From an uncultured Clostridium sp. (GTDB lineage Bacteria > Bacillota_I > Bacilli_A > RF39 > UBA660): a DNA stretch of 53,943 nucleotides. The notes beneath the pieces are model-generated. The model had not been told where the DNA came from. It worked only from the letters and a program-made list of their open reading frames with translations, and searched no databases. The DNA lies in the NCBI GenBank assembly GCA_964388545.1, contig CAYMAV010000005.1:298-54240 (forward strand). Direction: 5' to 3'. The translations under genes were made by a program, and so were the position numbers. Each line of letters opens with the position of its first letter. The stretch's first letter is position 1. Shown in pieces: positions 7,550-51,922 of this stretch.

Positions 7550-8808
7550 AGTTAGTAGAACTTACAGAAAAAGAATATCGTAATTTTATAAAAGGTAGAG
7601 ATGATTTATCTTTTATGCAGATGCCGGAAGTTGGCAATTTAAGAAAGATTTATGGTAGTGAGGTAAAATATTTAGGGATTAAAGATAGCGAAAAAGTAGT
7701 AGCAGCATCTCTTTTCCTTATTACTACAACATTTATGAAAAAGAAAACTTTTTACGCACCTCGTGGATTTCTTCTTGATTATAATGATAGTAAAGTTTTA
7801 AAAACATATCTTGAGGAGTTAAAGAAATATTGTAAGAAAAATAATGGTTTAATGATTAAAATCGATCCCAATATTAACTATCAAATTAGAGATAATAAAG
7901 GGGAAGAGTATCCTGATATTAATAAAAATGATAAAGTAATAAATGATTTAAAGAAACTAGGCTTTATTCACTATGGCTTTAATACAGATCTAATTTATAC
8001 TCAATCGAGATGGAATGTTTTGTTAAGTTTAGATAAACCCTATGAAGAGGTCGTTAGCAATTTTTCTAAGAGTACAAGGAAAAACATCGAAGAAGTTTAT
8101 CGAAAAGGCCTTAAGTGCCGTGTGGCTAAAAAAGAAGATTTAGCGATAATTCAACCGATTTTTGATCTTACAGCTGAAAGAAAAGATTTTAATGCTAGAG
8201 ATTTAGATTATTATAAGAATATGTTTGAATGTTTAGGAGATAAGATGCGTATTTATATTGCCTATTTAGAACCAGATCATTATTTAGATAATTCTAAAGA
8301 AAATTTAAGAGTTGCTGAAGAAGAACTAAAGGTTGTTCTAGATAAGATGGCAAGAGAAAAGGTTGGTAATAAATTAAAAGAACAAGAAGCGGTAGCTAAT
8401 AAAAAGGTAGATAAATGTAAAGAGGAATTAGAGCTAGCTAAAACTTTTAAAAAAGAATATCCAAAAGGAAGAGATATCGCAGTCTTAGTATCAATTAAAT
8501 CAGGTCCTGAATATCTCACTCTTTATAGCGGATATCTTACTGAGTATGCAAGATTTACTCCTAAATATATGCTTTACAATGAGCATATAAAAGATGCTTA
8601 TGAATTTAAGATGCTTAGAGTTAATTTTTATGGAATAACCGGAATCTTTGATCCTAAAGATAAGAATTATGGAATGTATGATTTTAAAAGAGGTTTTGGA
8701 GGAGAGGTCCAAGAACTTATTGGAGAATTTACTTATCCACTTTCCTGGCATTATCATTTATATATGATGTTAAGGAATTTAAAGAGAAAAATTAAAAAAG
8801 TAGATTAG
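7546..8808 (+). CDS. FemAB-family peptidoglycan interpeptide-bridge aminoacyltransferase (paralog 1)
   Basis: Has 'F(M/L)Q', 'YAPRGFLLDY', 'IKIDPN', a central coiled-coil insert and the C-terminus 'YGMYDFKRGFGGEV'. Its start overlaps the flippase stop (ATGA). Confidence 0.8.
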   Translation: MKLVELTEKEYRNFIKGRDDLSFMQMPEVGNLRKIYGSEVKYLGIKDSEKVVAASLFLITTTFMKKKTFYAPRGFLLDYNDSKVLKTYLEELKKYCKKNNGLMIKIDPNINYQIRDNKGEEYPDINKNDKVINDLKKLGFIHYGFNTDLIYTQSRWNVLLSLDKPYEEVVSNFSKSTRKNIEEVYRKGLKCRVAKKEDLAIIQPIFDLTAERKDFNARDLDYYKNMFECLGDKMRIYIAYLEPDHYLDNSKENLRVAEEELKVVLDKMAREKVGNKLKEQEAVANKKVDKCKEELELAKTFKKEYPKGRDIAVLVSIKSGPEYLTLYSGYLTEYARFTPKYMLYNEHIKDAYEFKMLRVNFYGITGIFDPKDKNYGMYDFKRGFGGEVQELIGEFTYPLSWHYHLYMMLRNLKRKIKKVD

Positions 8809-8816
8809 GTGATTTT

Positions 8817-10073
8817 ATGAAATTAGAAATATTAAATAATATTGAGTTTGAAGAATTTGCTAAGAATCATAAATATGCTAACTTTTTACAAAATATTTAT
8901 TTTGCTGAACTAAAAAAGAAAAATGGTTGGGATTATATCTTGTTAGGTGTAAAACAAGATAAAAAGATAGTAGCAGGTACTCTTCTTTTAATAAAGGATT
9001 TTAAATTTAAAAAGAAGATCTACTATGCTCCTCGTGGATACTTAGTAGACTATGATAATAAAGAGTTATTTTTATCTTTTGATAAATTAATAACTGATTA
9101 TTGCAAAAAAAATAATGGAATGTTTTTAAAGATTGATCCGAATCTAATCGTTGTAGACCGTGATAAAGATGGTAATGTAGTTGAAAAAGGAAAAGATAAT
9201 AGAGATTATATTAAATTATTTAAATCAAATGGTTATAAAGAAGAAAAGAAAAATCCTTTACAGATGAAGTGGATTTATACTTTAAATATTAAAGATAAGG
9301 CCTATGAGGAAATATCAGCTTCTATGACATCAAAAACTAGACAGATGATTAGAAAGAATGAAAAGAATGGTATTATATCAAGAGAAGGTAGTATTGAGGA
9401 GTTAGAGAGATTTAAGGACATTTTAGATGCAACAGGAGAAAGAAGGGGATTTGCTTCTCGTTCAATTAAATATCTTAAGGATATGTATGAAATTTATGCT
9501 AAAGATGGTTATGCTAAATTAATCTTCGCAGATATTATGATTAAGGATAATTTAGATAGCTTAAATGAAGAAGTAAATAGATTAACAATTGATTTAGAAA
9601 AAGCAAAAAGAGAGAAAGAACAGGGTAGAAATAAGATAACTGATGCTAAACTCTTAGAAAAAGAAAGTGAAATAGATAAGTTAAAAGAAAAGGTTAAAGA
9701 ATATGAAGTATTAAAAGAAAAATATGGATATAAAAAGACCATTGGGGCGATTCTTTATATCAACTATGGAAAAGAAGTTATGTCTTTTATCGGTGGGGCC
9801 TATGAAGAATTTATGGAATATCAACCATTCTACACGATTCATAACGATATGATTAAATACGCGATAGAAAATAAAAAAGAATGCTATAACTTCTATGGAA
9901 TATCAGGAGTCTTTGATCCAAAGGATTCAATGTACGGAATTTATCAATTTAAAAGAGGTTTTGGAGGGCAAGTTGTCGAATTAATAGGAGAATTTGATAA
10001 GAAGTTGTCATGGATGTATTATCCTTATAAAATTGCCTATTCTTTATATAGAAAGATAAAAAAAGGAGACTAG
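8817..10073 (+). CDS. FemAB-family peptidoglycan interpeptide-bridge aminoacyltransferase (paralog 2)
   Basis: Same architecture as paralog 1: 'YYAPRGYLVDY', 'LKIDPN', a coiled-coil insert and 'YGIYQFKRGFGGQV'. Confidence 0.8.
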   Translation: MKLEILNNIEFEEFAKNHKYANFLQNIYFAELKKKNGWDYILLGVKQDKKIVAGTLLLIKDFKFKKKIYYAPRGYLVDYDNKELFLSFDKLITDYCKKNNGMFLKIDPNLIVVDRDKDGNVVEKGKDNRDYIKLFKSNGYKEEKKNPLQMKWIYTLNIKDKAYEEISASMTSKTRQMIRKNEKNGIISREGSIEELERFKDILDATGERRGFASRSIKYLKDMYEIYAKDGYAKLIFADIMIKDNLDSLNEEVNRLTIDLEKAKREKEQGRNKITDAKLLEKESEIDKLKEKVKEYEVLKEKYGYKKTIGAILYINYGKEVMSFIGGAYEEFMEYQPFYTIHNDMIKYAIENKKECYNFYGISGVFDPKDSMYGIYQFKRGFGGQVVELIGEFDKKLSWMYYPYKIAYSLYRKIKKGD

Positions 10074-11339
10074 TTAGTCTCTTTTACTTTTTCTTCTTTT
10101 TTTAATAATTTTTCGATAGGTTGGTATTATTTTGGTGAAAGCTAGATACATTGGTTTATTAAGGACAAGATCAAATTCTCCGATAAATTCAATGTATTCT
10201 CCACCAAATCCGCTTTTAAACATATGTATTCCAAGTAGTGGATTATCTTTATTTAAATCGCCAATAGTGCCGAATTGATCAAATATTTTAATACCTTTTT
10301 CTTTGCAGTATTTTATATGCTCATAATAGGTTTTATAATTTGAATAGGAATTCATCAATATATTGTGGTTAGCAGCATATAATCCCCAAGCCCTATCATT
10401 ATAGATAACTGCAACATGAATATTTAAGGTTATTTCCTCTCCGTATTTTTCTAAAGCTTCTTTATATTCAGTAATATACTCATTTACTTTTTCTTCTTGG
10501 CTAATAATTTCCTTTAGCATTCCACTTTTACGAGGATTATTTTTAATCTTTCCTATTTCTTCTTGCAGTTTTTCTTTTTCATCTTCATAATCTTTTAAAA
10601 CCTTTTTAATATTTAGTGAACTTACAAAAAAAGTCATCTCATTATCTTTATTGTATATCTCATAAAAGTTTTTATAGTAATCATAGTTATAAGAAATAAA
10701 GTCTTTTCTTTTTTCCGTTATATCCATTAAATCACTAAAAGTCTTAATGTCATCAATATTACCGATTCTTACTTTTGTATGGAGTTTTTCGGCTTTGTTA
10801 ATTCTTTGTTTGGTAGTCTTTGAAAAATTATCAAAGATATCATTTTTTAAATTAATTCTAAAACTATAACGCGGTTGAGTAGATTCGAAGTTTTTAGTAA
10901 AACCTAGATGTTTAAATCCAAGATTTTTAAGGTTGTTAAATATCTTTTCATAGTCTTTAGAGTGTTCGATTACTTTTCCTTCATTATTAAATTTATTAAT
11001 AATTATATCTGGATCAATCTTTATAAAAATTGATTTCTTTTTTTTAGCATATTTTTTAATTTCATTGGTAAAGAACTTTAATAGTTCATTATCTAAAAAA
11101 TTGATTACAAAACCACGAGGTGAATAAAAGTATGAATAACCTAGAGGTAATTTTTTTTCAAGAAGTAGGGCAGTTGCTACTAATTTACTATCTTTTTCAA
11201 CCCCCACATAGTGAGGAATTAATTTACGGTTTTTTTCTTGAATTTCTCCCCAGGCATAGCTTTGTAAAAAATGACACTTTTTATGTCCTTTAACAAATTC
11301 TTCATATCTTTTTTTATCTATATTTTCGATGAATTTCAT
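10074..11339 (-). CDS. FemAB-family peptidoglycan interpeptide-bridge aminoacyltransferase (paralog 3, convergent)
   Basis: Has 'HFLQSYAWGE', 'FYSPRGFVINF', 'IKIDPD', a coiled-coil insert and 'LGIHMFKSGFGGEY'. Confidence 0.8.
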   Translation of the reverse strand: MKFIENIDKKRYEEFVKGHKKCHFLQSYAWGEIQEKNRKLIPHYVGVEKDSKLVATALLLEKKLPLGYSYFYSPRGFVINFLDNELLKFFTNEIKKYAKKKKSIFIKIDPDIIINKFNNEGKVIEHSKDYEKIFNNLKNLGFKHLGFTKNFESTQPRYSFRINLKNDIFDNFSKTTKQRINKAEKLHTKVRIGNIDDIKTFSDLMDITEKRKDFISYNYDYYKNFYEIYNKDNEMTFFVSSLNIKKVLKDYEDEKEKLQEEIGKIKNNPRKSGMLKEIISQEEKVNEYITEYKEALEKYGEEITLNIHVAVIYNDRAWGLYAANHNILMNSYSNYKTYYEHIKYCKEKGIKIFDQFGTIGDLNKDNPLLGIHMFKSGFGGEYIEFIGEFDLVLNKPMYLAFTKIIPTYRKIIKKRRKSKRD

Positions 11340-33228: not shown

Positions 33229-33975
33229 ATGAAAAGTAAAATTAAAAATCAAGGAAAAGATAATAAAAGTAAGAAAAAAATAGGTTTTACTTTAATAGAA
33301 TTATTAGCAGTTATTATTATTTTGGGAATATTAATAACAATTGCAGTAGTAGGTGTATCAAGATATATAAGGGATTCTAGAAAAGATTCGTATGTTGCAA
33401 CAGCAAAAAGCTATATATCTTCTGCTTTAAATTATGTGAATTCAGAAAAATTAGAAATGTTTGATGAAGGTATTACTTATTATTTACCTGAGAAATGTGT
33501 ACCTATGGAAAAAGCAAGAAGAAGTCCAAATGGTGACTTTAAGGAAGCATATGTTGCGGTTACTTATGATAAATATAGATTTAAGTAAATTTAACACTAT
33601 GAACGTAACTGATATGAGCTGGATGTTTAATTATTGCAATAGTATGACAAATATAGATTTAAGTAATTTTATAATATCAAATGTAAAAACTATGAAAGGT
33701 ATGTTTTGTCAAAATCAAAAATTAATTAATTTGGATTTGAGTTTTTTTAACGTTGCAAAAGAAATAGATATTTCTAAAATGTTTTATGGAAATTATGAGC
33801 TTACATATTTAAATATTCAAAATTTTAATATTAGTCTAATTGAGAATTCTGGTGGTCTTTTTCGAGGCTCATCTAGGATTAAGACAAGAGTAATTGTAAA
33901 AATCAAGAAGTTAAAAGTTTTCTTGAATCTAAATATTTAGAGGGGAATCCTAATTTAGTAATAACAACTATCTAA
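33229..33975 (+). pseudogene. Chimeric, frameshifted gene: type IV pilin-like N-terminus joined out of frame to DUF285/BspA-type leucine-rich repeats
   Basis: Frame 1 reads 'KKIGFTLIELLAVIIILGIL...AYVAVTYD' (prepilin motif and pilin core) and stops at 33588. Frame 2 continues from about 33571 with 26-aa repeats 'NIDLSKFNTMNVTDMSWMFNYCNSMT / NIDLSNFIISNVKTMKGMFCQNQKLI / NLDLS...'. A second frame change at the A5 run (33896-33900) returns to frame 1 with 'NQEVKSFLESKYLEGNPNLVITTI*'. Confidence 0.6.
33571..33666 (+). repeat. Exact 18-nt direct repeat 'aaatatagatttaagtaa' (33571-33588 and 33649-33666), 78-nt period
   Basis: Read directly from the sequence. The period equals one 26-codon DUF285 repeat unit. 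The first copy forms the pilin/DUF285 junction. Confidence 0.7.
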
Positions 33976-36760: not shown

Positions 36761-36825
36761 TTTCTTTTTAATAAGAGAGGTTTATTTTTAATTTTAGTCA
36801 TGTTATAATTTTTATGGTGATATAT

Positions 36826-37314
36826 ATGAAAAAAAATAATAAAAAAGTTTATTCAAGCGACAGTGAAGAAATAATGAATATGGGGAAAATATTACTTGGT
36901 ATAATTCTTTCTTTAGGTTTAGTTTATTTGGTATTTGGTATTATGTCTGGAGAAATCAAATTAAAAGAAGAAATTAAAGAAGTGGAAATAAATTATGAAG
37001 AGGTTTTAGGTGGTACTATAGCTAGTATAAAAGAGGAATCTTATTATGTATTACTTTATAATTTTAAGGATTATGATTTCTCAAGAGCGATTGATATTGG
37101 TAATTATCGTTCTAAAAAAGTTTATAAAGTTGATTTAGGAAAAAGTTTTAACTCTCAATATATGGTAACCGATCAAAAAGATGTAAATTTGAAGGATATT
37201 AGTTCTTTAAAGGTTTTAAATCCTACTCTTATAAAGGTAAATAATAAAAAAATAGTTAATAGTGTTTTAGGGAAAAATGAAATAATTAAGGAACTTTTAA
37301 AAGAGGTGAGTTAA
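36826..37314 (+). CDS. Hypothetical membrane-anchored protein
   Basis: Extended -10 'tgttataat' at 36801-36809 and RBS 'ggtga'. One TM helix, 'ILLGIILSLGLVYLVFGI'. No recognisable motif. Confidence 0.55.
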   Translation: MKKNNKKVYSSDSEEIMNMGKILLGIILSLGLVYLVFGIMSGEIKLKEEIKEVEINYEEVLGGTIASIKEESYYVLLYNFKDYDFSRAIDIGNYRSKKVYKVDLGKSFNSQYMVTDQKDVNLKDISSLKVLNPTLIKVNNKKIVNSVLGKNEIIKELLKEVS

Positions 37315-38513
37315 TGGAAAAAAAGAAGACTACTAAGCGAAAAGTTAAAGTAAGAGAAATAGATTTAAAGAAATTTAGTGTTTTAGAAGTAGTTATTCTA
37401 ATATCTTTAACGGCTTTGGTTTTTATGTTTGTAGGAGCTTTTATATTTTATAAAAAATATGATGGTGGGAAATTAAAAAATGGTAAGAATATAGGTGCGA
37501 TTGAAGAAGTTTATAATTCGGTTTTAAAAGAATATTATGGCGAAATCGATGAAGATATATTAACTGATTCAGCTCTTTGGGGTATGAGTAAGATGGGAGA
37601 TAGTTATGCAAGCTATATTCCAAAAGACGAAGTAGGTCTTAATAATGAAATATTAGATGGATCCTATATAGGACTTGGAGTTAATGTTATTAATAACAAA
37701 GATAATTATTTAGAAGTGGTTATAATAAATGATGATTCACCCGCTAAAAAAGCTAAAATAGAGTTAAACGATATAATTTATAAGGTAGATGATTTATCTC
37801 TTCATGATGTTTCGATGGAAGATGTAATAAAATACATAAAAAATTCTAAAAAAGGTGATAAGGTTAAACTCTATATTTTAAGAAATAATGAAAAGATAGA
37901 ATTAGAAGTTGAACTTGATGTAATAGAGCATCAAACAGTATCTTCTTATATAATAGAAAAAAATAATAAGCATATAGGGGTTATTAAAATAAGTTATTTC
38001 TCTAAAAATACCGCACTACAATTTAAGAAGATTTATGAAAATTTAGAAGCAGATTATTTAATTATTGATTTAAGGGATAATAAGGGTGGTTATTTATCTA
38101 ATGCATCGAATATATTGGAGTTGTTTTTAGATAGTAATTCGACTATTTATAGACTTAAAACAAAGGAAAAAGAAGAGTTTATAAAAAGTAACAAAGAGAA
38201 ATTAATCGATAAAAAGGTAGTTTTACTTGTTAATAATAATACTGCTTCTTCATCTGAGATGTTTGCAGCAAGCTTAAAAGATAATTTAAAAGTTAAAATA
38301 ATTGGTGTTCCTACTTATGGAAAAGGATATGTCCAAAAAGTTTTAGAGCTTAGTAACGGTGGTTTATTTAAATTTTCTGCTAGAGAAATATTAACTCCTA
38401 ATGGTATGAGGATTGAAGGAAATGGAGTTTTGGTTGACATATATGTTGAACAAAATGAAGATGATAAGATAGATTATCAACTTGAAAAGGCGATTTTGGA
38501 GGTATTGAAATGA
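37314..38513 (+). CDS. S41-family C-terminal processing peptidase (Ctp/Prc-like) with PDZ domain
   Basis: N-terminal TM helix. PDZ region 'GLGVNVI...SPAKKAKIELNDIIYKVDD'. S41 core 'IIDLRDNKGGYL', 'VLLVNNNTASSSEMFAASLKD' and 'GKGYVQK'. Confidence 0.8.
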   Translation: MEKKKTTKRKVKVREIDLKKFSVLEVVILISLTALVFMFVGAFIFYKKYDGGKLKNGKNIGAIEEVYNSVLKEYYGEIDEDILTDSALWGMSKMGDSYASYIPKDEVGLNNEILDGSYIGLGVNVINNKDNYLEVVIINDDSPAKKAKIELNDIIYKVDDLSLHDVSMEDVIKYIKNSKKGDKVKLYILRNNEKIELEVELDVIEHQTVSSYIIEKNNKHIGVIKISYFSKNTALQFKKIYENLEADYLIIDLRDNKGGYLSNASNILELFLDSNSTIYRLKTKEKEEFIKSNKEKLIDKKVVLLVNNNTASSSEMFAASLKDNLKVKIIGVPTYGKGYVQKVLELSNGGLFKFSAREILTPNGMRIEGNGVLVDIYVEQNEDDKIDYQLEKAILEVLK

Positions 38514-39094
38514 GAAAAAATAAAGGTTTTACCTTAATTGAAATTATTGCAGCGATTATAATTATAGGAATTATTGTACTTGTTGCTAATCCATTAGTTC
38601 AAAGCTTTATTATAAGTTCAAGAAAATCTTCCTTTGCATCGAATGCTAGTGCTTTTTTAGAAACAGTTAAAGCTAAAATGGAAATGTATGAATACGGTGA
38701 AATTGCAGAGACAGAGAGCATGATAGTGCCTCTTCGTTATGTAAAATTAGAAAAAGGTTCAACTGTTGATAGCCCATTTGGAAAATATGATTTGGATCGA
38801 AGTTATATAATTATTACTAATCACAATAATTCAAAAGGCCCAGCTTATCTGTATCACATTAATTTGATGGATGAGACAGGACATGCTATTAAAGAGGGGA
38901 CTTTTAATACTTTAAATAAAAATAAAGTAGAAGCAGGAGATCGAAATAGAATGCCAACCTTAGTAGAAATTGCAACAAATGGTTACAATTGTGAGGTTGC
39001 TAATACTAATTGCTATGAGTTTTTAGAAAAAAGAGATATCTCTGGTGCAACTGGTATTGCTGGTTCTGAAGTCTTAATTTTAATTAAAAGATAA
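38510..39094 (+). CDS. Prepilin-type N-terminal cleavage/methylation-domain protein (type IV pilin/pseudopilin-like)
   Basis: 'MRKNKG|FTLIEIIAAIIIIGIIVLVA' gives the G-F-T-L-I-E class III signal. A C-terminal Cys pair 'NCEVANTNC' is present. The start overlaps the ctp stop (ATGA). Confidence 0.8.
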   Translation: MRKNKGFTLIEIIAAIIIIGIIVLVANPLVQSFIISSRKSSFASNASAFLETVKAKMEMYEYGEIAETESMIVPLRYVKLEKGSTVDSPFGKYDLDRSYIIITNHNNSKGPAYLYHINLMDETGHAIKEGTFNTLNKNKVEAGDRNRMPTLVEIATNGYNCEVANTNCYEFLEKRDISGATGIAGSEVLILIKR

Positions 39095-39179: not shown

Positions 39180-41165
39180 ATGAAGAAGAAATTATTGACA
39201 ATTATAATTATATTTTTTATTTTTTTTCCTATGGCTTTTGCAAAAGAAATAGAAACAGCAATAGTAAACGCTCCAGCAGGTTTAAGATTAAGAGTGACTC
39301 CTACTACGGATGCATCAATTATATTATCAATGCCACATGGCTCTAAAGTACAAGTTTTAGAAAAAGGCTTTACAGGAACTGGATGCGATGCAGGATGGAT
39401 GAAAGTTGTTTATAATAGCAAGGAAGGTTATACTTGTTCAGCATATTTAATCAATTTTAAAAATGAAACAATACCCGATGATCCGGTTCCGCCAGTTAAT
39501 CCAATATATAATACGGACGAAGAATTTTATGCCTATTTAAGAGCTGAAGGATTTCCAGAAAGCTATTTTGCTAAGTTAAATGAATTAAGAAAAAAACACC
39601 CTAATTGGACTTTTAAAGCGATTAAATCTAGAGATACATGGACTAATTTATTAAATTATCAGGATTTTTCAGGAAGAGCATTATTAGGAGTATATTTAAA
39701 TTCTACTTATGAAGGATGGCTATCAACTAGACAAGGGGATTATAATTGGGAGACAAATATATTTAAACCATATGATGGGTTAGTGTGGAAACAAGCCTCT
39801 AGGGAGGTAATCGCATATCATATTGATCCGCGAAATTATTTAGATGAGAGAACAATTTTTATGTTTGAAACATTAAGCTACAATAGAGATATTCATACGA
39901 CAGAAGTGGTTAGAAATGTTTTATATTCGGACTTTTTAAGACAATTTACATCATTATTTATGAAAGCAGCCGAAGTAACTAATGCTTCTCCGCTATTTTT
40001 AGCTGCGGTATCAAGACAAGAGGTAGGAACATCTAGTACTAATATTGTTACTAATGGTAAAGCTGGAGTTTTATCCGATGGAGTTGATTATACCGGATAC
40101 TATAACTTTTTTAATGTCGGTGCTTCCTCATCATCAGATCCTAAATTAAAATCATTGCAATCAGCTAAGGCAAGAGGATGGAATACTCAAGAAAAATCAA
40201 TTACTGGTGGAGCTCAAGTAATCGCTGGAAATTATATTAAATATGGACAGGATACTTTATTTTATCAAAAATTTAATCATGCTGGGTATTCGCTGACTTA
40301 TATGTGGAATCAATATCAAACTAACATATCCGCACCATCTTCAACAGCGGTAACAACTTTTAATAGTTATAATAATATGGGAATAATTAATTCTTCCTTT
40401 GTTTTTCACATCCCTGTTTATGAGGAAATGCCAGAGGTAACAACTCTTCCACCTTTAGGAAATCCAAATAATTGGTTAAAGAATTTAAAAGTTAATGGAG
40501 TTACATTAACGGGATTTTCTGGTTCGATTACGGATTATAAATTAACAGTATCTGGAGATGTTATAAAAATAGAGGGGACACCTGTTTATGGTAAAGCTCA
40601 AATAACAGGTCTTGGTACCTTTGATTTAAGTGAGTCTAAAACTTTTGAAGTAGTAGTTAAAGCTGAAAATGGAAGTCTTAGAAAATATAAAGTTGAAGTA
40701 ACTAAAACCGAATTACCTGAAACCGATGTTACAATTAATCAAGTTTTAACAAATTCAATATATAAGACAAAAGATAATAAAATTCATAATATAGCTTTAG
40801 GAACTAATGTAGCAAAATTTAGGGATAATATTATAAAAGATAATATAGGAATAAGTATAAATATAAAGGATTCTAGTGGTGCAGCAAAACTAGAAGGAAC
40901 GATTGTTAATGGGGATATTGTTACAATATCAACGAAGAACGAAACAATAGTATTTTATGTAATTATTTATGGAGATGTTACAGGAACTGGACAAATAGGT
41001 ATAGTTGATTTAGGTTCAATTCAAAAGCATCTATTAAGTGTTAAAAAATTAGAAGGAAATGATTTTATAGCGGCAGATGTAAATCGCGATGGTAAGATTA
41101 CGATAGTTGATTTAGGAATGCTTCAAAAACATTTGTTAAAAATAAGTTATATTAATCAGTCATAG
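39180..41165 (+). CDS. Secreted multidomain putative peptidoglycan hydrolase: signal peptide, SH3b, GH73-like glucosaminidase region, cadherin-like beta-sandwich, C-terminal dockerin
   Basis: Signal peptide 'FFPMAFA|KE'. SH3b 'GLRLRVTPTTDASIILSMPHGSKVQVLEK...GWMKVVY'. 'HPNWTF', 'DPRNYL', 'LAAVSRQEVG', 'YYNFFNVGA' and 'GWNTQEKSITGGAQ...GQDTLFYQKFN' are typical of endo-beta-N-acetylglucosaminidases. Cadherin-like module 'LKNLKVNGVTLTGFSGSITDYKL...'. Dockerin duplicated segments at 40971-41138. Confidence 0.7.
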   Translation: MKKKLLTIIIIFFIFFPMAFAKEIETAIVNAPAGLRLRVTPTTDASIILSMPHGSKVQVLEKGFTGTGCDAGWMKVVYNSKEGYTCSAYLINFKNETIPDDPVPPVNPIYNTDEEFYAYLRAEGFPESYFAKLNELRKKHPNWTFKAIKSRDTWTNLLNYQDFSGRALLGVYLNSTYEGWLSTRQGDYNWETNIFKPYDGLVWKQASREVIAYHIDPRNYLDERTIFMFETLSYNRDIHTTEVVRNVLYSDFLRQFTSLFMKAAEVTNASPLFLAAVSRQEVGTSSTNIVTNGKAGVLSDGVDYTGYYNFFNVGASSSSDPKLKSLQSAKARGWNTQEKSITGGAQVIAGNYIKYGQDTLFYQKFNHAGYSLTYMWNQYQTNISAPSSTAVTTFNSYNNMGIINSSFVFHIPVYEEMPEVTTLPPLGNPNNWLKNLKVNGVTLTGFSGSITDYKLTVSGDVIKIEGTPVYGKAQITGLGTFDLSESKTFEVVVKAENGSLRKYKVEVTKTELPETDVTINQVLTNSIYKTKDNKIHNIALGTNVAKFRDNIIKDNIGISINIKDSSGAAKLEGTIVNGDIVTISTKNETIVFYVIIYGDVTGTGQIGIVDLGSIQKHLLSVKKLEGNDFIAADVNRDGKITIVDLGMLQKHLLKISYINQS

Positions 41166-41173
41166 GAGGCATT

Positions 41174-42502
41174 ATGAAGAAATTTATCAAATTATCAATA
41201 TTAATTGTTATCTTTTTCTTAAGTGTTTTAATTGTAAAGGGTGCAGCAAATAGTATTACAATTACCTCAAATACTAGTAAGGTTGTAGTAGGAAACAAAG
41301 TAACTTATACTGTTAAGATAACCTCTGCTAAATCTTTAATTGCGCTTCAATACAGCATCTCTTACGATACATCTAAACTGACCTTAATTAGCGGAACTGC
41401 CAAGGGGGTAGATTACTATACTGGCCCAAGAACATCGGCAACCTATACCTTTACTTTTAGAGCCAAAGCAAGTGGAACAGCAAATTTTACTTTTAAAGCC
41501 GAAGGAGCGGCCTATTCAACCGATGAGTCGATTAATTTTGGAAGTAAAAGCAAATCGATTAGTATTATTACTCAACAGCAATTAGAAGCTAGCTATAGTA
41601 AAAATAACAATTTAACTTATTTAGAGGTTACAGGATATAAAATTACTCCTGTCTTTAACGCTAATACAACAAATTATAATTTGGTTGTTGAAAATGATGT
41701 AAGAGAAGTTATTGTTAAAGGAACCTTAGCAGATTCTAGATCAACAGTTAAAGGATTAGGAAAACATAGTCTAGAAGAGGGTATAAATAAAATTGTTGTT
41801 ACGGTTACTGCTCAAAATGGAGTATCAAAAAATTATACGATTAATATTGAAGTAAAAGAGTTAGAACCAATAATAGTAGAAATTGAAGGAGTAAAATATA
41901 ATGTAGTTAGAAAAGCTAAATTATTAACTAAACCTAATAGCTTATTCATTGAAAAAAACACTAAAATAGGAGAATTTGAGGTACCCTCTTTTTATAATGA
42001 GGTATCTAATATTACTTTAGTGGGACTTAAGGATGAGAGAAATGATATTCATCTATATGAATTTAATAATGGTAAATATATTTTATATAATGAATTAAAA
42101 TTTTCAGAGATAATAACAGTATTTAAAAAGTTAGATAAAATTCCCAAAGGATATAATGAAACAAAAATCAAATATAATGATAAGGAATATATAGCATATA
42201 AAAAAGATAATATTTATTTGATTAATCTATTAAATTTAAAAACAGGTAAGACAAAACTTTATCGATTTGATAATAAAGAAGGTACTATTCAAGGTTATAA
42301 TTTAGATGAAGAAAACGAAAAAATTACTCTGGAGAAAAATAATAAAATATATATTTATATAATAATAATTCTTTCTGGTATTATTTTTACTACTTATTCC
42401 GTTCTTATTGGCTATAAAATTAAAAAGAATTTAACAAAAAAGAAGAAAAAAATAGAAAATAATGATAAAATAAAAGAAGAGAAAAATAAAGGAAAAAAAT
42501 AA
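41174..42502 (+). CDS. Surface protein: signal peptide, cohesin-like module, cadherin-like beta-sandwich, unknown domain, C-terminal TM anchor with Lys-rich tail
   Basis: Signal peptide 'LIVKGA|ANS'. 'VVVGNKVTYTVKITSAKSLIALQYSISYDTSKLTLISGTAKG...FTFRAKASGTANFTFKAEG' follows the cohesin sequence pattern. Cadherin-like module 'LTYLEVTGYKITPVFNANTTNYNLVVEN...'. TM helix 'IYIYIIIILSGIIFTTYSVLIGY'. Confidence 0.55.
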   Translation: MKKFIKLSILIVIFFLSVLIVKGAANSITITSNTSKVVVGNKVTYTVKITSAKSLIALQYSISYDTSKLTLISGTAKGVDYYTGPRTSATYTFTFRAKASGTANFTFKAEGAAYSTDESINFGSKSKSISIITQQQLEASYSKNNNLTYLEVTGYKITPVFNANTTNYNLVVENDVREVIVKGTLADSRSTVKGLGKHSLEEGINKIVVTVTAQNGVSKNYTINIEVKELEPIIVEIEGVKYNVVRKAKLLTKPNSLFIEKNTKIGEFEVPSFYNEVSNITLVGLKDERNDIHLYEFNNGKYILYNELKFSEIITVFKKLDKIPKGYNETKIKYNDKEYIAYKKDNIYLINLLNLKTGKTKLYRFDNKEGTIQGYNLDEENEKITLEKNNKIYIYIIIILSGIIFTTYSVLIGYKIKKNLTKKKKKIENNDKIKEEKNKGKK

Positions 42503-42525: not shown

Positions 42526-44631
42526 ATGGCTAAAAGAAGAAAAAAGATAAGAATTAATTCATTTTTATCAATTTTTTATATACTATCAGCTCTTTATTTA
42601 ATAAGAGCAATTCTATATTTTAACAAAATAGAAAATAAAATAAGATATATCGTTGTGGGCGTAATAGGAATCTCAATCTTAATTTTTCTATTCCTAACTT
42701 TTATTAAAAAAGGTGGTAAGAAGAAAAAAGGCTTAACGATATCTTTAATATTTTTATTAATTTTTAATATTTATGTTGGATATAATCTATCTTCTATTTA
42801 TGAGCATATTTCTAATTTAAATAAAAAAGTTGTTTATTCAGTAACAATGGTTACTTTAAAGGAAAATGAAAACAAATATAACGATTTTAGCAATTTAAAA
42901 AAGAAGAAAATTGGCCTATTAAACAAGGAAGTGGATATTGAAATATATAATCTTTCAGTTTTATCAATTAATAATAATAATTTAAATAATAATACTATTA
43001 TCGACACTTATGAAGGTGAATTTACAATGATTAAGGATCTTTTAGATAAGAAGATTGATGTAGCGTATTTACCAACTAATTACAAAGAGGCATTAAATCC
43101 TGAATTATTTGGTGGAGAAGAGGCAACTAAAAAAGAATTTGATAAATTAGTAAGCATTAATAAGGCACAAGTTGAAAAAGAAGTATCTAAAGAAGATGAA
43201 AAATTAAGTAGTAAACAAATTGATATTAATAAACCTTTTACAATGCTTTTGATGGGAATAGATTCAACAACTGATAGCATTGCAAAAACTAATTCAACTA
43301 ATGGAGATTCCTTAATGGTTGTAACATTTAATCCTAAAACAATGAATATGACTATTCTTAGTTTACCAAGAGATAGTTATGTTTATATAACATGTATGGG
43401 AACAGAAAATAAATTAACTCATTCGGCCCAAAGAGGAATGAAATGTGTAATTAGTACAATAGAGGGATTTTTAAATGTAAAGATCGATTACTATGTAAAG
43501 ATTAATTTTAATGGAGTAGTTAAGTTAGTCGACCAAGTAGGTGGAATAGAAGTAGATGTTCCATATAATGTCTGCGAACAAGATAGTAAAAGAAGATTTG
43601 GAAAATATATGGTTTATATAGATAAGGGATTACAAAAACTTAATGGAGAACAAGCTCTAGCACTTTCAAGAAACAGAAAGATTCATTATGAATATTGTAA
43701 GGGTAAATATACTGAAGGATATAGAGATGACTTTACAAGAGGGCATAATCAACAGTTAGTAGTAATGGGACTTTTAGATAAAATAAAAGAATATACAAAT
43801 GTTAATAATTTTAAAAATTTATTAAAAATAGTGGAAAATAATATAGATACTAATATGAGTCAAGATACAATATTTTCTTTTTATGATTTATTTAAAGAGA
43901 TAATGAAGAATTCTTCAGGAGAACAAATATTTAATATTCAAAGACTGGTTTTAAAAGGTAATTCACAAATAATATTTGATGAGAGAAGTAAGTTAGAAAT
44001 GGATAATATAATTTTAAATCCTAATAGTCTTAAAGCGGTTAAAGAAGCGATGAAGGCTAATTTAGGGAAGGCATCAATTACTCCAAATAAAACATTTAGC
44101 TATAAATACGGAGAAAATTATATTAAAAATATTATCGGAAATATTACCTATGGGCAAAAATACTATACATTATTACCTAGTTTTATAGGTAAAACGGAAG
44201 GTGAAGTAAGTACTTATTGTAAAAATAATGGTCTTACTTTAAATGTAGAATATGTAGTTAGTAGTGGTAAAAAATCAGGTACAGTATTAGAACAAAATTA
44301 TCCTGAAAAGAAAAGAGCGGATTTAATTACTGATAAAATATTAAAAATTAAAGTAGTTAGAAATGAAGTCGATTGCCTAACTAGTACGGATAAGGTTTGT
44401 AATTTACCGGATTTCGAAGGAAAGAAGATAAGTGATTATAATGCTTGGAAAAACAAAATATATAATAAAATTACTTATAAAACAGTAGAAGTAGAAAGCG
44501 AAAAAACCGAAGGAACGATTATTTCTCAGTCGGTTTCCGCCGGAACAACGGTAAAGGAAATATTAGAGGCTAATAAAATAATCACTTTTGAAATCGCTAA
44601 AAAGAAAACAATAGAGGAGCCAACTCCATAG
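42526..44631 (+). CDS. LytR-CpsA-Psr (LCP) family glycopolymer transferase with an extra N-terminal extracellular domain and two C-terminal PASTA domains
   Basis: Two N-terminal TM helices. LCP core 'FTMLLMGIDS...GDSLMVVTFNP...ILSLPRDSYV...VKINFNGVVKLVDQVGGIEVDV...ALALSRNR'. PASTA-like repeats 'LPSFIGKTEGEVSTYCKNNGLTLNV...GTVLEQNYP' and 'LPDFEGKKISDY...GTIISQSVSAGTTV' (about 44173-44598). Confidence 0.8.
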   Translation: MAKRRKKIRINSFLSIFYILSALYLIRAILYFNKIENKIRYIVVGVIGISILIFLFLTFIKKGGKKKKGLTISLIFLLIFNIYVGYNLSSIYEHISNLNKKVVYSVTMVTLKENENKYNDFSNLKKKKIGLLNKEVDIEIYNLSVLSINNNNLNNNTIIDTYEGEFTMIKDLLDKKIDVAYLPTNYKEALNPELFGGEEATKKEFDKLVSINKAQVEKEVSKEDEKLSSKQIDINKPFTMLLMGIDSTTDSIAKTNSTNGDSLMVVTFNPKTMNMTILSLPRDSYVYITCMGTENKLTHSAQRGMKCVISTIEGFLNVKIDYYVKINFNGVVKLVDQVGGIEVDVPYNVCEQDSKRRFGKYMVYIDKGLQKLNGEQALALSRNRKIHYEYCKGKYTEGYRDDFTRGHNQQLVVMGLLDKIKEYTNVNNFKNLLKIVENNIDTNMSQDTIFSFYDLFKEIMKNSSGEQIFNIQRLVLKGNSQIIFDERSKLEMDNIILNPNSLKAVKEAMKANLGKASITPNKTFSYKYGENYIKNIIGNITYGQKYYTLLPSFIGKTEGEVSTYCKNNGLTLNVEYVVSSGKKSGTVLEQNYPEKKRADLITDKILKIKVVRNEVDCLTSTDKVCNLPDFEGKKISDYNAWKNKIYNKITYKTVEVESEKTEGTIISQSVSAGTTVKEILEANKIITFEIAKKKTIEEPTP

Positions 44632-48429: not shown

Positions 48430-49296
48430 ATGAAAAAAATATTATATGGATTTATTTTAACAATGATGTTATTTGGGGGAATGTTGAATGTAAAAGCTGA
48501 TGTGTTGTTAGGAGACTTGAAATGTGGAGACTCTGAATATTCTGTAAAGATTAAAAATGGGCAAACTGTAGAATGTACTTTATTTGCTGGTGAAAGTTCT
48601 GGTAATTTGTTATTATTTAACGATGCAACTGTTAAGATAGTTGGATTTCAAGATGAAGTTGGTACTAAATATATTGATTTAACTTATCGTTTTGAACCAA
48701 ATAGCGCTTTGACTAAAGTTTCAGAAAATAATGGTACTTATACATTAAAAAATGAAAATAATAAGGTAAAAGATGGAAATATTGGAAAATTTTATTTAAC
48801 ATTTAATAATGCTGAAAAGATCAAACACGGTGTTAATTTTAGTGTTATAGTTAAATTAAATGGAGAAGATTATTCAATGGATATATCTAGAGATTTTTAT
48901 AATGAGGATAATGTTTATGAAATTTATTCAGAAGGTTATAACAATGATACTAGCTTACATAATATAATAATCGAAAATTATAATATTGATTTTAATAAGG
49001 ATAAGAAGGAATATAATTTAAATATAAATAAAGAAGATAAATTAGATATTGTTTGTAGTACAAATGATTCTAAAGCAAAATATGAAATAAAAGGAAATGA
49101 AAATTTAAAAGATGGCAGTAAAATAGAAATAATTGTAACGGCAACAAATGGTGCGACAGATACTTATGTAATTAATATTAAAAAAGAGGAGAGTTTGGAT
49201 ACATCTACTATCGCAATAATTGGATTAAGCGCAGTTGTTGTAATTTTACTTTCTTATGTTATCTATATAAATTTAAATAAAAAGAAAGTTTATTAA
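48430..49296 (+). CDS. Surface protein: signal peptide, N-terminal beta-rich domain, cadherin-like beta-sandwich, C-terminal TM anchor
   Basis: Signal peptide 'MLNVKA|DV'. Cadherin-like module 'LHNIIIENYNIDFNKDKKEYNLNI...IEIIVTATNGATDTYVINIKK'. TM helix 'IAIIGLSAVVVILLSYVIYI' followed by 'NKKKVY'. Same layout as the 41174 ORF. Confidence 0.6.
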   Translation: MKKILYGFILTMMLFGGMLNVKADVLLGDLKCGDSEYSVKIKNGQTVECTLFAGESSGNLLLFNDATVKIVGFQDEVGTKYIDLTYRFEPNSALTKVSENNGTYTLKNENNKVKDGNIGKFYLTFNNAEKIKHGVNFSVIVKLNGEDYSMDISRDFYNEDNVYEIYSEGYNNDTSLHNIIIENYNIDFNKDKKEYNLNINKEDKLDIVCSTNDSKAKYEIKGNENLKDGSKIEIIVTATNGATDTYVINIKKEESLDTSTIAIIGLSAVVVILLSYVIYINLNKKKVY

Positions 49297-51213: not shown

Positions 51214-51298
51214 AAGCTACTTATTGTAAAATAGGGTGTATAGTTGTTGATTTTAAAAAAAATATATGCTAATCTTTTATTATAGAAAGGAGTACAAT

Positions 51299-51922
51299 AT
51301 GAAAAAGGAAAAAGGTTTTACATTAATTGAATTACTTGCAGTTATTATTATTCTAGGAGTATTAATGACAGTTGCAGTAGTTGGAGTAACAAGATATATT
51401 AACGATTCAAGAAGAAGTACTTATGCTACTTCAGCAGGAACATATGTAAATGATGTTATGAATGCGGTTAATGGGCAAAGAATTTATGCTAGTCAAGTTG
51501 GAACTTTATATCTTGTACCAGTAGGAACAGAAAGTGCAAAAACTTGTGTAGCATTAGAAAAGGGTGGTGTATCACCATTTAGTAAAACTTGGTCTTATGC
51601 ATATGTTGGAGTTAAATACGACGGACATTCAAATAAATATTTTTATGTAAGTCTTGATGGTGCTAACCATGCTATTAACTTTACAACAAATGAGATTTTA
51701 TTAGATCAAGGTGGAAAATTAATTGCTACAGGTGCCGATGTTACTACAGTTGATGAATTACAACCTAACTATGGTTTAACAAGTAGTAGAAGTTTCTTTG
51801 TAGGAACAGGAACGCCTCCAACAGGTATGACTAATGGTTCAGCTAATCTTAGAGCATTGGCAGGAGTTGCTGGAACTGATGTTACAATTGTAACATTTGT
51901 TGGAACAGACGCTTGTAATTAA
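51299..51922 (+). CDS. Prepilin-type N-terminal cleavage/methylation-domain protein (candidate major pilin/pseudopilin)
   Basis: RBS 'aaggag'. 'MKKEKG|FTLIELLAVIIILGVLMTVAVVG'. The globular part is rich in Gly, Thr, Val and Ala. Cysteines at 'AKTCVAL' and the C-terminal 'DACN'. The ORF-track start at 51266 lacks an RBS. Confidence 0.8.
   Translation: MKKEKGFTLIELLAVIIILGVLMTVAVVGVTRYINDSRRSTYATSAGTYVNDVMNAVNGQRIYASQVGTLYLVPVGTESAKTCVALEKGGVSPFSKTWSYAYVGVKYDGHSNKYFYVSLDGANHAINFTTNEILLDQGGKLIATGADVTTVDELQPNYGLTSSRSFFVGTGTPPTGMTNGSANLRALAGVAGTDVTIVTFVGTDACN

Follow-up and report, generated by a model that had tools for sequence, protein, structure and literature searches.

A dockerin-bearing GH73-type hydrolase and an adjacent membrane-anchored cohesin protein as a probable one-to-one surface tether in uncultured gut Bacilli

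Results

Gene pair and surroundings

Two neighbouring open reading frames were analysed within a window comprising the whole stretch of 53,943 nucleotides. Gene 1 encodes a predicted wall hydrolase that ends in a dockerin, and gene 2 a membrane protein that begins with a cohesin module. The features of the pair and of the gene that follows it are given below with the evidence on which they are based.

39180-41165, + strand: gene 1, secreted peptidoglycan hydrolase (predicted) of the order SH3b, GH73, two Ig-like modules, dockerin; 661 aa (ORF and domain searches)
39180-39242, + strand: signal peptide, aa 1-21 (hydrophobic aa 3-24; cleavage predicted from the sequence between AFA and KE)
39279-39449, + strand: SH3b domain (SH3_3, PF08239), aa 34-90 (Pfam E 5e-8, 33.5 bits against a cut-off of 27)
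39783-40421, + strand: GH73-type N-acetylglucosaminidase core, aa ~202-414 (SagB structures 6u0o/6fxp; presumed catalytic Glu281 in the motif SRQEVG)
40452-40964, + strand: two beta-rich spacer modules, aa ~425-595, the first cadherin-like, the second joining the dockerin without a linker
40968-41138, + strand: dockerin, aa 597-653, with two 22-residue Ca-loop/helix repeats (PF00404, Dockerin_1)
41164-41169, + strand: ribosome binding site AGGAGG, overlapping the gene 1 stop codon, 4 nt upstream of the gene 2 ATG (sequence)
41174-42502, + strand: gene 2, type I membrane protein of 442 aa with a cohesin, a cadherin-like domain, a domain of unrecognised fold, a TM helix and a K-rich tail (ORF)
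41243-41581, + strand: short cohesin module, aa 24-136 (PF00963, PDB profile search, AF2 and Foldseek)
41615-41851, + strand: cadherin-like beta-sandwich, aa 148-226 (PF12733, E 5.8e-7, 30.3 bits against 24.2)
41870-42343, + strand: membrane-proximal domain, aa ~233-390, conserved, all-beta with a helix in addition, not assignable to a family or fold (AF2)
42347-42499, + strand: TM helix, aa 392-414, and Lys-rich cytoplasmic tail, aa 415-442 (hydropathy)
42526-44631, + strand: LCP (LytR-CpsA-Psr) glycopolymer-to-peptidoglycan ligase with two C-terminal PASTA domains, downstream of the pair (Pfam, NCBIfam)

The stop codon of gene 1 (TAG, 41163-41165) and the ATG of gene 2 at 41174 leave an intergenic gap of 8 nt, and this distance as well as the separate ribosome binding site were described correctly in a preliminary description of the locus. 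Of the 74 related loci with enough sequence, 31 have the LCP gene directly downstream of the pair, and another 8 carry it close by on the other strand. The envelope-related neighbours in the window include CdaA, YbbR, an S41 protease, the LCP-PASTA protein, SMC, an LtaS-like protein, three FemAB proteins and a MurJ-like protein. The GC content is uniform throughout the window.

Pfam scans of all 46 window ORFs of at least 110 aa revealed neither cellulosomal genes nor dockerin-bearing plant-polysaccharide enzymes, and a six-frame HMM scan of the window detected exactly one dockerin and one cohesin, in line with the earlier statement that cellulosomal genes are missing from the window. For the sequence covered, a multi-enzyme complex of the cellulosome or amylosome type was considered and rejected given the single cohesin and single dockerin present in the window and in each of 83 related loci. 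The window represents 54 kb of the genome, and further cohesins or dockerins, and thus other partners, may be encoded elsewhere.

The hydrolase encoded by gene 1

The part of the gene 1 protein preceding the dockerin had been described as a signal peptide, an SH3b domain, a GH73-like region and a cadherin-like sandwich. The first three were recovered, whereas the cadherin-like match remained below the Pfam threshold in this protein (14.4 against 24.2 bits, E 0.053). Hydropathy analysis identified a single hydrophobic segment, which is N-terminal (aa 3-24), and the family profile of the protein matched SH3b domains in the PDB. A conserved N-terminal extension (aa ~112-201) lies ahead of the GH73 core. 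The spacer region is kept in 76 of 83 loci as determined by tblastn, and PF12733 is a precomputed annotation of many gene 1 orthologues. The gene 1 family comprises more than 1400 clusters, with Dockerin_1 present in 117 of the best 120.

A single-sequence search of the PDB with the GH73 region matched S. aureus SagB and Atl structures (E 2e-14, SagB 6u0o/6fxp). The family profile matched SagB, the Atl glucosaminidase and AtlE over approximately 220 residues with E-values from 3.5e-31 to 3.5e-24; among solved structures, SagB is nearest to the catalytic domain (E 3.5e-31). The Pfam Glucosaminidase model (PF01832), which had been suggested as a check, gave no reported match to the gene 1 protein; GH73 was seen through PDB similarity instead, and the domain therefore belongs to a divergent subgroup. 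E281 is part of an xxE(S/T)G-type motif and aligns with the Glu of the SagB motif 'ALLETG'; based on established GH73 knowledge, we take it to be the catalytic general acid. Both E281 and Y379 are invariant in an alignment of 28 family members and at least 90% conserved among 80 locus orthologues. By similarity, and by the catalytic Glu together with the downstream Tyr, the region belongs to GH73, and the gene product would be expected to act as an N-acetylglucosaminidase that cuts the GlcNAc-beta-1,4-MurNAc bond of peptidoglycan. An assignment as SagB orthologue (NCBIfam NF052642, 'peptidoglycan release complex glucosaminidase SagB') was rejected because the score of 71.1 bits is far below the cut-off of 425, so that gene 1 shares a related catalytic domain only.

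The dockerin of gene 1

The duplicated Ca-loop dockerin reported for the C-terminus was confirmed in full length, with Dockerin_1 (PF00404) matching aa 597-653 at 39.6 bits against a cut-off of 22.9 and across 57 of 57 profile positions, and with a family profile that detected PDB dockerins at E 6e-14 to 1e-5. While loop 2 (DVNRDGKITIVD) is canonical, loop 1 (DVTGTGQIGIVD) is not, having Thr in place of Asn/Asp at ligand positions 3 and 5, which renders Ca binding by repeat 1 of this dockerin uncertain. The family mostly carries N3 (52/82) and D5 (73/82) at these positions. The module had also been labelled type I; its identity as a dockerin holds, but the type is not established. The highest-scoring matches of the dockerin profile were type I dockerins borne by enzymes (2ccl, 1ohz; E 1e-12 to 1e-11), with a weak score for the type II XDoc of CipA (2b59, E 3e-4). 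Those of the cohesin profile were the type II cohesins 2y3n and 3l8q from B. cellulosolvens and A. cellulolyticus.

The cohesin module and the remainder of the gene 2 protein

When aa 22-140 of the gene 2 protein were scanned alone, the beta-rich module previously likened to a cohesin matched PF00963 with 31.9 bits against a cut-off of 24.1 (E 1.7e-7). The match spans only positions 4-102 of the 139 in the profile, and Cohesin was not reported in the Pfam scan of the full-length protein. Of the models proposed for verification, SH3_3, Dockerin_1, Cadherin-like (in the gene 2 protein) and, for the isolated module, Cohesin scored above cut-off. The module comprises ~113 aa and is about 25 residues shorter than a typical cohesin. 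Among 26 homologues, the Cohesin HMM matched 24 at E<=1, and models of the BatD/DUF11 type also matched 13-16. The top PDB matches of the N-terminal profile were the cohesins 2y3n, 3l8q and 5g5d, and the hhalign probability against one single cohesin sequence was 47%. An AF2 model of the module (pLDDT 92.9, pTM 0.84) had the C. perfringens cohesins 2jh2, 2vo8 and 2w1n as top Foldseek matches (E 1e-6 to 1e-5, TM 0.71-0.75), followed by at least ten further cohesins at E<1e-3; TRAP-beta and complement MG domains were almost equal to cohesins in E-value. According to HMM, PDB profile and a predicted fold of the cohesin-type beta-sandwich (jelly-roll) kind, the module is a cohesin, and cohesins lead both the profile and the Foldseek rankings.

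The other elements attributed to this protein, namely an N-terminal signal peptide, a cadherin-like module, a C-terminal TM helix and a Lys-rich tail, were all found. The TM segment is present in 83 of 84 orthologues, whose tails are rich in K and R, and the family includes at least 874 homologous clusters. For the membrane-proximal domain, no Pfam or PDB sequence match was obtained, and Foldseek searches of the PDB and BFVD with its AF2 model (pLDDT 87.9, pTM 0.78) yielded no match either (best E 0.15-0.19, TM <0.25). This domain with its 19 invariant residues, and not the cohesin, is the most conserved portion of the protein.

Conservation of the pair and covariation of the modules

As had been proposed for verification, the conservation of the two genes as neighbours was assessed, and the pairing is invariant: all 83 related loci, which come from uncultured gut Bacilli, have the two genes side by side, either overlapping or separated by 2-25 nt. 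These loci stem from species-level genomes that share only 33-50% identity. [quoted passage not shown] The pair is conserved throughout the lineage in the manner of a core gene.

At the classic recognition positions, the two dockerin repeats change together; concerted evolution was seen for positions 9-11, 14, 15 and 20. At positions 9, 10, 11, 14 and 20, the repeats of one dockerin match far more often than those of different proteins, with an identity at position 10 of 0.90 within the same protein versus 0.25 between proteins. This is the pattern that selection by a binding partner would produce. Between the proteins, the cohesin holds 54 of the top 100 covarying pairs versus 27% expected from its share of columns, and the cohesin residues 56, 59, 61, 113 and 117 covary with the dockerin. 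The six strongest pairs connect dockerin positions 14/15 of both repeats with cohesin residues 56, 113 and 117. Leu at dockerin position 14 (Doc14) was accompanied by Gly/Ala at cohesin residue 56 (Coh56) in 67 pairs, two of these with Ile in the second repeat, Gly/Ala at Doc14 by Val/Ser/Ile/Phe in 10 pairs, and Val at Doc14 by Ser/Ala in 5 pairs. The sizes of the two residues are complementary (Leu/Gly versus Gly/Ile) with zero mismatches in 82 pairs, a set of related sequences with few independent events. In a tree built without the dockerin and cohesin modules, Doc14/Coh56 changed in 3-5 separate lineages. Coh56-59 align with the strand-3 hot spot Asn37/Asp39 of cohesin 2 of C. thermocellum CipA, as we take the sequence and numbering of this template to be, and by this alignment the covarying cohesin residues would adjoin the canonical dockerin-binding hot spot.

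Discussion

With a probability of roughly 0.6, we propose that the two proteins form a dedicated one-to-one cohesin-dockerin tether that positions a GH73 enzyme, most likely on the cell's own wall. A docking principle of the cellulosome type is apparently reused here for holding a peptidoglycan hydrolase at the cell surface. The two-component tether suggested in the preliminary description is supported by the cohesin HMM match and predicted fold, the adjacency in all 83 loci and the covariation. The observations that would speak against it and can be checked in silico did not arise, as both a cohesin HMM match and a cohesin fold are present in the N-terminal module of gene 2. From these patterns we infer that the two modules bind each other physically, with the Ca2+ dependence and stoichiometry outlined below.

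Both proteins would be exported by Sec, with coupled translation probably providing equal amounts. Protein 2 would be retained in the membrane by its C-terminal helix, with its one cohesin capping a stalk formed by the cadherin-like domain and the membrane-proximal domain. The C-terminal dockerin of the secreted enzyme would dock into this cohesin, presumably in a Ca2+-dependent manner, and the two near-identical dockerin repeats suggest that binding is possible in either of two orientations. The enzyme and its SH3b wall-binding domain would thereby be kept at a fixed distance from the membrane, where the docked hydrolase most likely trims or splits the producer's own peptidoglycan in growth and division. 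We favour this own-wall role because the neighbours are housekeeping envelope genes in a window of uniform GC content, and because the nearest relatives with known structures are glucosaminidases with a physiological role in staphylococci.

The same tether could serve another purpose, which we regard as unlikely: it might display the enzyme on the surface as a weapon or for foraging, a minimal 'lyticome' with which a small-genome gut organism lyses neighbouring bacteria or harvests their wall sugars. Cell-wall hydrolases with a dockerin have been noted for rumen cellulosomes, and dockerin-linked lysozyme-type modules of rumen metagenomes were proposed to be a 'defense or attack mechanism' (Bensoussan et al. 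2017, PMC6487960); complexes of this kind have been given the name 'lyticome' (Vermassen et al. 2019, PMC6403190). They share with gene 1 the fusion of a dockerin to a peptidoglycan-cleaving catalytic module. However, their modules are of the lysozyme type and are thought to join multi-cohesin scaffoldins for microbial competition, whereas the window encodes a putative dedicated one-to-one receptor next to the enzyme and no scaffoldin within its 54 kb, and each locus has one enzyme and one cohesin instead of a multi-enzyme complex. The complete genome of a relative of just 1.31 Mb would fit a dependence on other cells. While an enzyme that carries an SH3b domain for targeting and has long spacers could reach outward, the membrane anchor would place it beneath or within the wall of the producer. 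Moreover, the pair resides among housekeeping envelope and division genes, often beside an LCP ligase, its lineage-wide conservation resembles that of a core gene, and the nearest characterised relatives of the enzyme are endogenous autolysins.

It is quite improbable that the modules do not bind each other and that adjacency reflects a shared pathway rather than a complex, with the dockerin as a Ca-stabilised terminal module or a ligand of some other partner, and with the gene 2 module as a generic Ig-like spacer in a protein whose real function lies in the membrane-proximal domain: the modest and partial cohesin signal, missing from the full-length scan, the BatD/DUF11-type matches, the non-cohesin beta-sandwiches at similar Foldseek E-values and the superior conservation of the membrane-proximal domain are compatible with this, but cohesins ranked first by three independent methods, the strongest covariation ties dockerin recognition positions to the cohesin and not to the other domains of protein 2, the Doc14/Coh56 size swap is free of mismatches, and both dockerin repeats evolve in concert.

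Returning to the own-wall tether, we put forward tentatively a wider possibility. An order-level lineage of small-genome uncultured gut Bacilli might place its principal glucosaminidase by a private, co-evolving plug of one enzyme and one receptor, the specificity of which was re-coded several times by complementary size swaps, and the receptor might couple this placement through its membrane-proximal domain and cytoplasmic tail to wall synthesis or to LCP-PASTA glycopolymer attachment. If true, this would represent a new class of autolysin anchoring or control beside LysM, choline-binding, SLH and GW modules and FtsEX-type control.

Several known systems resemble the proposed tether in part. 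The best structural matches to the window cohesin, at a sequence identity of about 15%, are cohesins of C. perfringens glycoside-hydrolase toxins (GH84C/NagJ-type, GH33/NanJ; 2jh2, 2vo8, 2w1n), i.e. modules on non-cellulosomal glycoside hydrolases of a non-cellulolytic Firmicute. In C. perfringens, each partner is a secreted enzyme, and together they build toxin complexes that act on host glycans, whereas in the window pair a membrane-anchored protein without catalytic function would serve as receptor and the enzyme is a predicted peptidoglycan hydrolase. In OlpA/OlpC of the cellulosome producer C. thermocellum (3ul4, 4dh2), a single cohesin on a surface-anchored protein holds one dockerin enzyme at the cell surface, as proposed for the window pair, and their cohesins are among the fold matches and their dockerins among the sequence matches obtained here. 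These proteins are anchored to the wall by SLH domains and carry plant-polysaccharide enzymes, in contrast to the TM helix with cytoplasmic tail and the GH73 enzyme of the window pair, which has no cellulosomal genes nearby.

The tether idea also has precedent in dockerin-bearing wall hydrolases and in a lone dockerin and cohesin associated with GH73, which the accounts cited here mention but do not characterise. For Ruminococcus bicirculans, a lone dockerin and cohesin 'associated with a GH73 enzyme' were noted (2014 study cited in Ze et al. 2015, PMC4611034). [quoted passage not shown] Among hydrolases with membrane partners, S. aureus SagB-SpdC (6u0o) offers a parallel: there too a GH73 glucosaminidase is kept at the membrane by a membrane protein, as predicted here. 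SagB is itself membrane-anchored and contacts its partner, a polytopic membrane protein, within the membrane, whereas the link in the window pair would be an extracellular cohesin-dockerin plug.

The gene pair and its junction

The window, of low GC content (25-30%) and uniform composition throughout, carries a gene for a secreted hydrolase with SH3b, GH73 and dockerin modules (protein 1), followed by the gene for a putative receptor (protein 2).

Features of the gene pair (nucleotide positions of the window, or residues of the protein)
39180-41165, +, gene 1, ORF of 661 aa
41160-41165, +, end of gene 1, TCA TAG (sequence)
41164-41169, +, AGGAGG, overlapping the stop codon of gene 1 (sequence)
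41174-42502, +, gene 2, ORF of 442 aa
Protein 1, aa 34-90, SH3_3 (Pfam, E 5e-8)
Protein 1, aa 597-653, Dockerin_1 (Pfam, 39.6 bits against a cut-off of 22.9, all 57 profile positions)
Protein 2, aa 148-226, cadherin-like (Pfam, 30.3 against 24.2 bits)
Protein 2, aa 392-414, C-terminal TM helix, then a Lys-rich tail

The preliminary description had placed the start of gene 2 8 nt downstream of gene 1 with its own ribosome-binding site, and the sequence agrees, with the ATG at 41174. Because AGGAGG lies on the stop codon of gene 1 and the ATG of gene 2 is nearby, the two genes are probably translationally coupled. A promoter and terminator scan, in which counts were at background level, returned no terminator-like site between the two genes and none in the region 36.8-49 kb except one within the downstream LCP gene; in the 85-nt gap 5' of gene 1, promoter-like matches occurred at chance frequency.

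Domain organization of the two proteins

Protein 1 has a single hydrophobic segment (aa 3-24), taken as the signal peptide. Similarity to GH73 glucosaminidases spans residues ~202-414: the domains of SagB, Atl and AtlE from S. aureus are matched at E 2e-14 with the single sequence and at E 3.5e-31 with a profile of the 28-member family. In the alignment, Glu281 in the motif SRQEVG pairs with the Glu of SagB 'ALLETG', which is the position of the general acid in GH73. Neither Glu281 nor Tyr379 varies in the alignment of the 28 family members, and both are conserved at 90% or more among 80 locus orthologues. Since the Pfam Glucosaminidase model gave no match in the scan of protein 1, we assign the catalytic domain to a divergent GH73 subgroup. 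It is separated from the dockerin by a beta-rich spacer of ~170 residues, where a cadherin-like match falls below the Pfam threshold in the window protein but is recorded for many orthologues. The signal peptide, SH3b domain and GH73-like region first described for protein 1 thus hold, and the SH3_3 and Dockerin_1 models exceed their cut-offs, the latter confirming the proposed C-terminal dockerin over its full length, whereas the Glucosaminidase model is silent and the cadherin-like sandwich is sub-threshold in the window protein. The first Ca loop of the dockerin (aa 602-613, window 40983-41018), DVTGTGQIGIVD, has Thr at ligand positions 3 and 5, which are Asn and Asp in most orthologues; the TG variant of this loop is common to few relatives only (related loci L005 and L012).

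Protein 2 begins with a signal peptide, in which Ala-Ala is nearly invariant at positions 23-24. Together with the C-terminal TM helix and the Lys-rich tail, this predicts a membrane protein of type I topology, N-terminus outside; these elements and the cadherin-like module were all recovered as originally described. Three independent tests, on sequence profiles and a predicted structure, identify the N-terminal module as a cohesin, with reservations. Scanned alone, aa 22-140 match Pfam Cohesin at 31.9 bits (cut-off 24.1, E 1.7e-7), a match that spans profile positions 4-102 of 139 only and is not reported in the Pfam scan of full-length protein 2; 24 of 26 homologues of the module also match at E<=1. 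A profile of the module searched against the PDB finds cohesins best, with 2y3n at E 9e-4, then 3l8q, 5g5d, 1tyj and others. The AlphaFold2 model (pLDDT 92.9, pTM 0.84) is matched best by the C. perfringens non-cellulosomal cohesins 2jh2, 2vo8 and 2w1n in Foldseek (E 1e-6 to 1e-5, TM 0.71-0.75), followed by many cellulosomal cohesins and the Archaeoglobus non-cellulosomal cohesin 2xdh; other beta-sandwiches, namely TRAP-beta, complement MG domains and CARDB, score well too. The supposed cohesin module therefore has both an HMM match and a predicted fold of this kind. It is ~25 residues shorter than usual cohesins, and by profile matches its closest relatives are type II cohesins, those of the dockerin being type I dockerins.

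The most conserved part of protein 2 is the membrane-proximal domain (aa ~233-390, window 41870-42343), with 19 invariant residues and a confident model (pLDDT 88) that is all-beta plus a helix. It had no match in Pfam, PDB sequences, PDB folds (Foldseek) or viral folds (BFVD), and may represent an undescribed extracellular domain.

Distribution and conservation of the pair

Homologues fall into at least 1434 clusters at 90% identity for protein 1, with Dockerin_1 in 117 of the top 120, and into at least 874 such clusters for protein 2. A scan of GTDB species-representative genomes gave at least 221 matching stretches, the best 80 of which all come from uncultured gut MAGs of rabbit, ruminants, Hadza and Brazilian humans, mouse and chicken, labelled mostly 'Bacilli bacterium' and in a few cases 'Tenericutes' or 'Erysipelotrichaceae'. 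The relatives, which include one closed chromosome of 1.31 Mb, OZ006981.1, appear to belong to a small-genome lineage of gut Bacilli such as RF39; genomes of this kind are reported to retain peptidoglycan synthesis (PMC7301438). A representative search with full-length protein 2 was uninformative on family breadth: its 23,957 matches were dominated by very large proteins that carry dozens of cadherin-like repeats, and among the top 150 most covered profile positions ~145-230 only.

Whether the genes are conserved as neighbours is answered by 83 related loci, in all of which the GH73 gene immediately precedes the cohesin gene, with a gap of 2-25 nt or an overlap, and ends in a two-repeat dockerin. 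Over 0.84 Mb, every related locus carries a single dockerin ORF and a single cohesin ORF. The 54-kb window likewise holds one of each, in line with the earlier statement that it contains no cellulosomal genes.

Coordinated variation of dockerin and cohesin

In type I dockerins, recognition classically involves positions 10/11 and 17/18, and concerted change of both repeats is characteristic of a dual binding mode. Within proteins of the present family, repeat 1 equals repeat 2 at positions 9/10/11/14/15/20 with frequencies of 0.67, 0.90, 0.70, 0.98, 0.46 and 0.85, compared with identities between proteins of 0.22, 0.25, 0.20, 0.66, 0.15 and 0.47 at the same positions; Gln17 and Lys18 are nearly invariant. 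Covariation was calculated as mutual information with average-product correction from 82 non-identical pairs, which are related sequences with few independent events, and the cadherin-like, membrane-proximal and TM regions of protein 2 served as internal controls of the same phylogeny. The six strongest inter-protein pairs connect dockerin positions 14/15 of both repeats with cohesin residues 56, 113 and 117, and positions 10/11 covary with residues 61, 113 and 117. The cohesin accounts for 27% of the protein 2 columns and for 54 of the 100 top covarying pairs. Position 14 of each dockerin repeat (Doc14) and cohesin residue 56 (Coh56) follow a size-complementary pattern.

Residues at Doc14 (repeat 1/repeat 2) and Coh56 in 82 pairs
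Leu/Leu with Gly: 59 pairs
Leu/Leu with Ala: 6 pairs
Leu/Ile with Gly: 2 pairs
Gly/Gly or Ala/Ala (window type) with Val, Ser, Ile or Phe: 10 pairs
Val/Val with Ser or Ala: 5 pairs
Any mismatched combination: 0 pairs

When a neighbour-joining tree is calculated from the GH73, cadherin-like and membrane-proximal domains only, the non-Leu/non-Gly state falls in 3-5 separate lineages. The third state, Val/Val with Ser or Ala, belongs to five related loci of separate lineages (L019, L028, L034, L052 and L059), in some of which HLW replaces HIL after Gln-Lys; these pairs may be natural orthogonal cohesin-dockerin variants. By hhalign, residues 56-59 lie opposite the strand-3 segment of C. thermocellum CipA cohesin 2, at a probability of only 47%. 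This segment holds Asn37 and Asp39, the type I binding hot spot, and a location of residues 56-59 at the hot spot is a lead.

Proposed function and alternatives

The tether originally suggested is supported by all available in-silico tests; binding, Ca dependence, enzymatic activity and the biological target are predicted. We put at roughly 60% the probability of a private one-to-one tether, in which the membrane-anchored receptor would present its single cohesin on a stalk, and the secreted GH73 enzyme would dock through its dockerin, be held near the membrane and most probably cut the producer's own glycan strands. The main rival, that the tether exists and the enzyme serves against other bacteria, appears unlikely to us; such a use has been suggested for dockerin-linked lysozymes in the rumen literature (PMC6487960), where the term 'lyticome' was also coined (PMC6403190). 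Still less probable is a second rival, that the cohesin and dockerin modules are not mutual binders; it has the covariation and the lack of mismatched Doc14/Coh56 combinations against it. A mobile or phage-derived lysin cassette was rejected on uniform GC, conserved synteny and housekeeping neighbours, and a cellulosome part on the single dockerin and single cohesin in the window, whose ORFs were scanned, and in each related locus.

Cohesin-dockerin pairs are mainly known as cellulosome builders, and non-cellulosomal pairs occur in C. perfringens toxins, the R. bromii amylosome and archaea. The outcome of the proposed tether would resemble that of SagB-SpdC in S. aureus, SagB being the closest solved relative of the protein 1 enzyme, but the coupling device there differs from a cohesin-dockerin pair. 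Cellulosome producers are known to have cell-wall hydrolases with dockerins (PMC6403190, PMC6487960), and one sentence in Ze et al. (PMC4611034) associates a lone dockerin/cohesin with a GH73 enzyme in R. bicirculans; a 2018 review on Gram-positive surface display treats cohesin-dockerin under cellulosomes only. Our literature search found no experimental characterisation of a TM-anchored cohesin receptor with a GH73-dockerin partner. Apparently new are the TM-anchored single-cohesin receptor, the strict adjacency and coupling of its gene with the GH73-dockerin gene, the spread of the pair across a large, uncultured lineage of gut Bacilli, the covariation evidence for a cohesin-dockerin pair and the conserved receptor domain without recognisable fold.

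If true, a conserved pair dedicated to holding a peptidoglycan hydrolase on a membrane receptor would extend cohesin-dockerin interactions to core envelope biology. To our knowledge, Gram-positive autolysin placement otherwise relies on wall-binding repeats or direct membrane anchors, which a protein-protein plug would then join. The large family with its natural specificity variants (Leu/Gly versus Gly/Ile) offers a ready test of the cohesin-dockerin specificity code and could supply protein engineers with small orthogonal pairs. It also provides a first entry point to wall remodelling in gut Bacilli that are abundant and uncultured, and flags a conserved extracellular domain without known fold in the receptor family.

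Neighbouring genes

Among the envelope genes of the window are those for three FemAB-family paralogues, a MurJ-like flippase, an LCP ligase and an LtaS-like enzyme. The LCP (LytR-CpsA-Psr) ligase gene (42526-44631, +) encodes an extended membrane region at the N-terminus and two PASTA domains at the C-terminus, a fusion that looks unusual. As it lies directly 3' of the pair in 31 of the 74 loci with enough downstream sequence, and nearby on the other strand in 8 further loci, it is a frequent, non-obligatory neighbour. The FemAB paralogues stand in tandem, the third on the opposite strand (7546-11339), directly after the MurJ/Wzx-like flippase (5915-7549), an arrangement suggesting that the interpeptide bridge of the peptidoglycan consists of several residues.

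A prepilin-type N-terminal methylation motif occurs in three stand-alone genes scattered among the envelope genes (33229-33588, 38510-39094 and 51266-51922), and the window holds no pilus-assembly genes. The second of the three is immediately upstream of the GH73 gene; among the called genes of two related loci (L001 and L002) it is not kept beside the pair. The first overlaps, in a different frame of the + strand, an ORF with a DUF285 'Mycoplasma' repeat domain (33461-33940), and the two may derive from a single gene interrupted by a frameshift or assembly error.

Two conserved-looking ORFs had no Pfam match: 36814-37314 (166 aa, N-terminal hydrophobic segment), between the YbbR and S41 protease genes, and 48430-49296 (288 aa), between the SMC and LtaS-like genes. 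An Abi_2 (abortive-infection-like) gene (3868-4824) is located between the tsaE-tsaB-rimI/tsaD cluster and an HtrA-type protease, and a single ORF (1360-2766) fuses GNAT (RimI-like) and TsaD domains.
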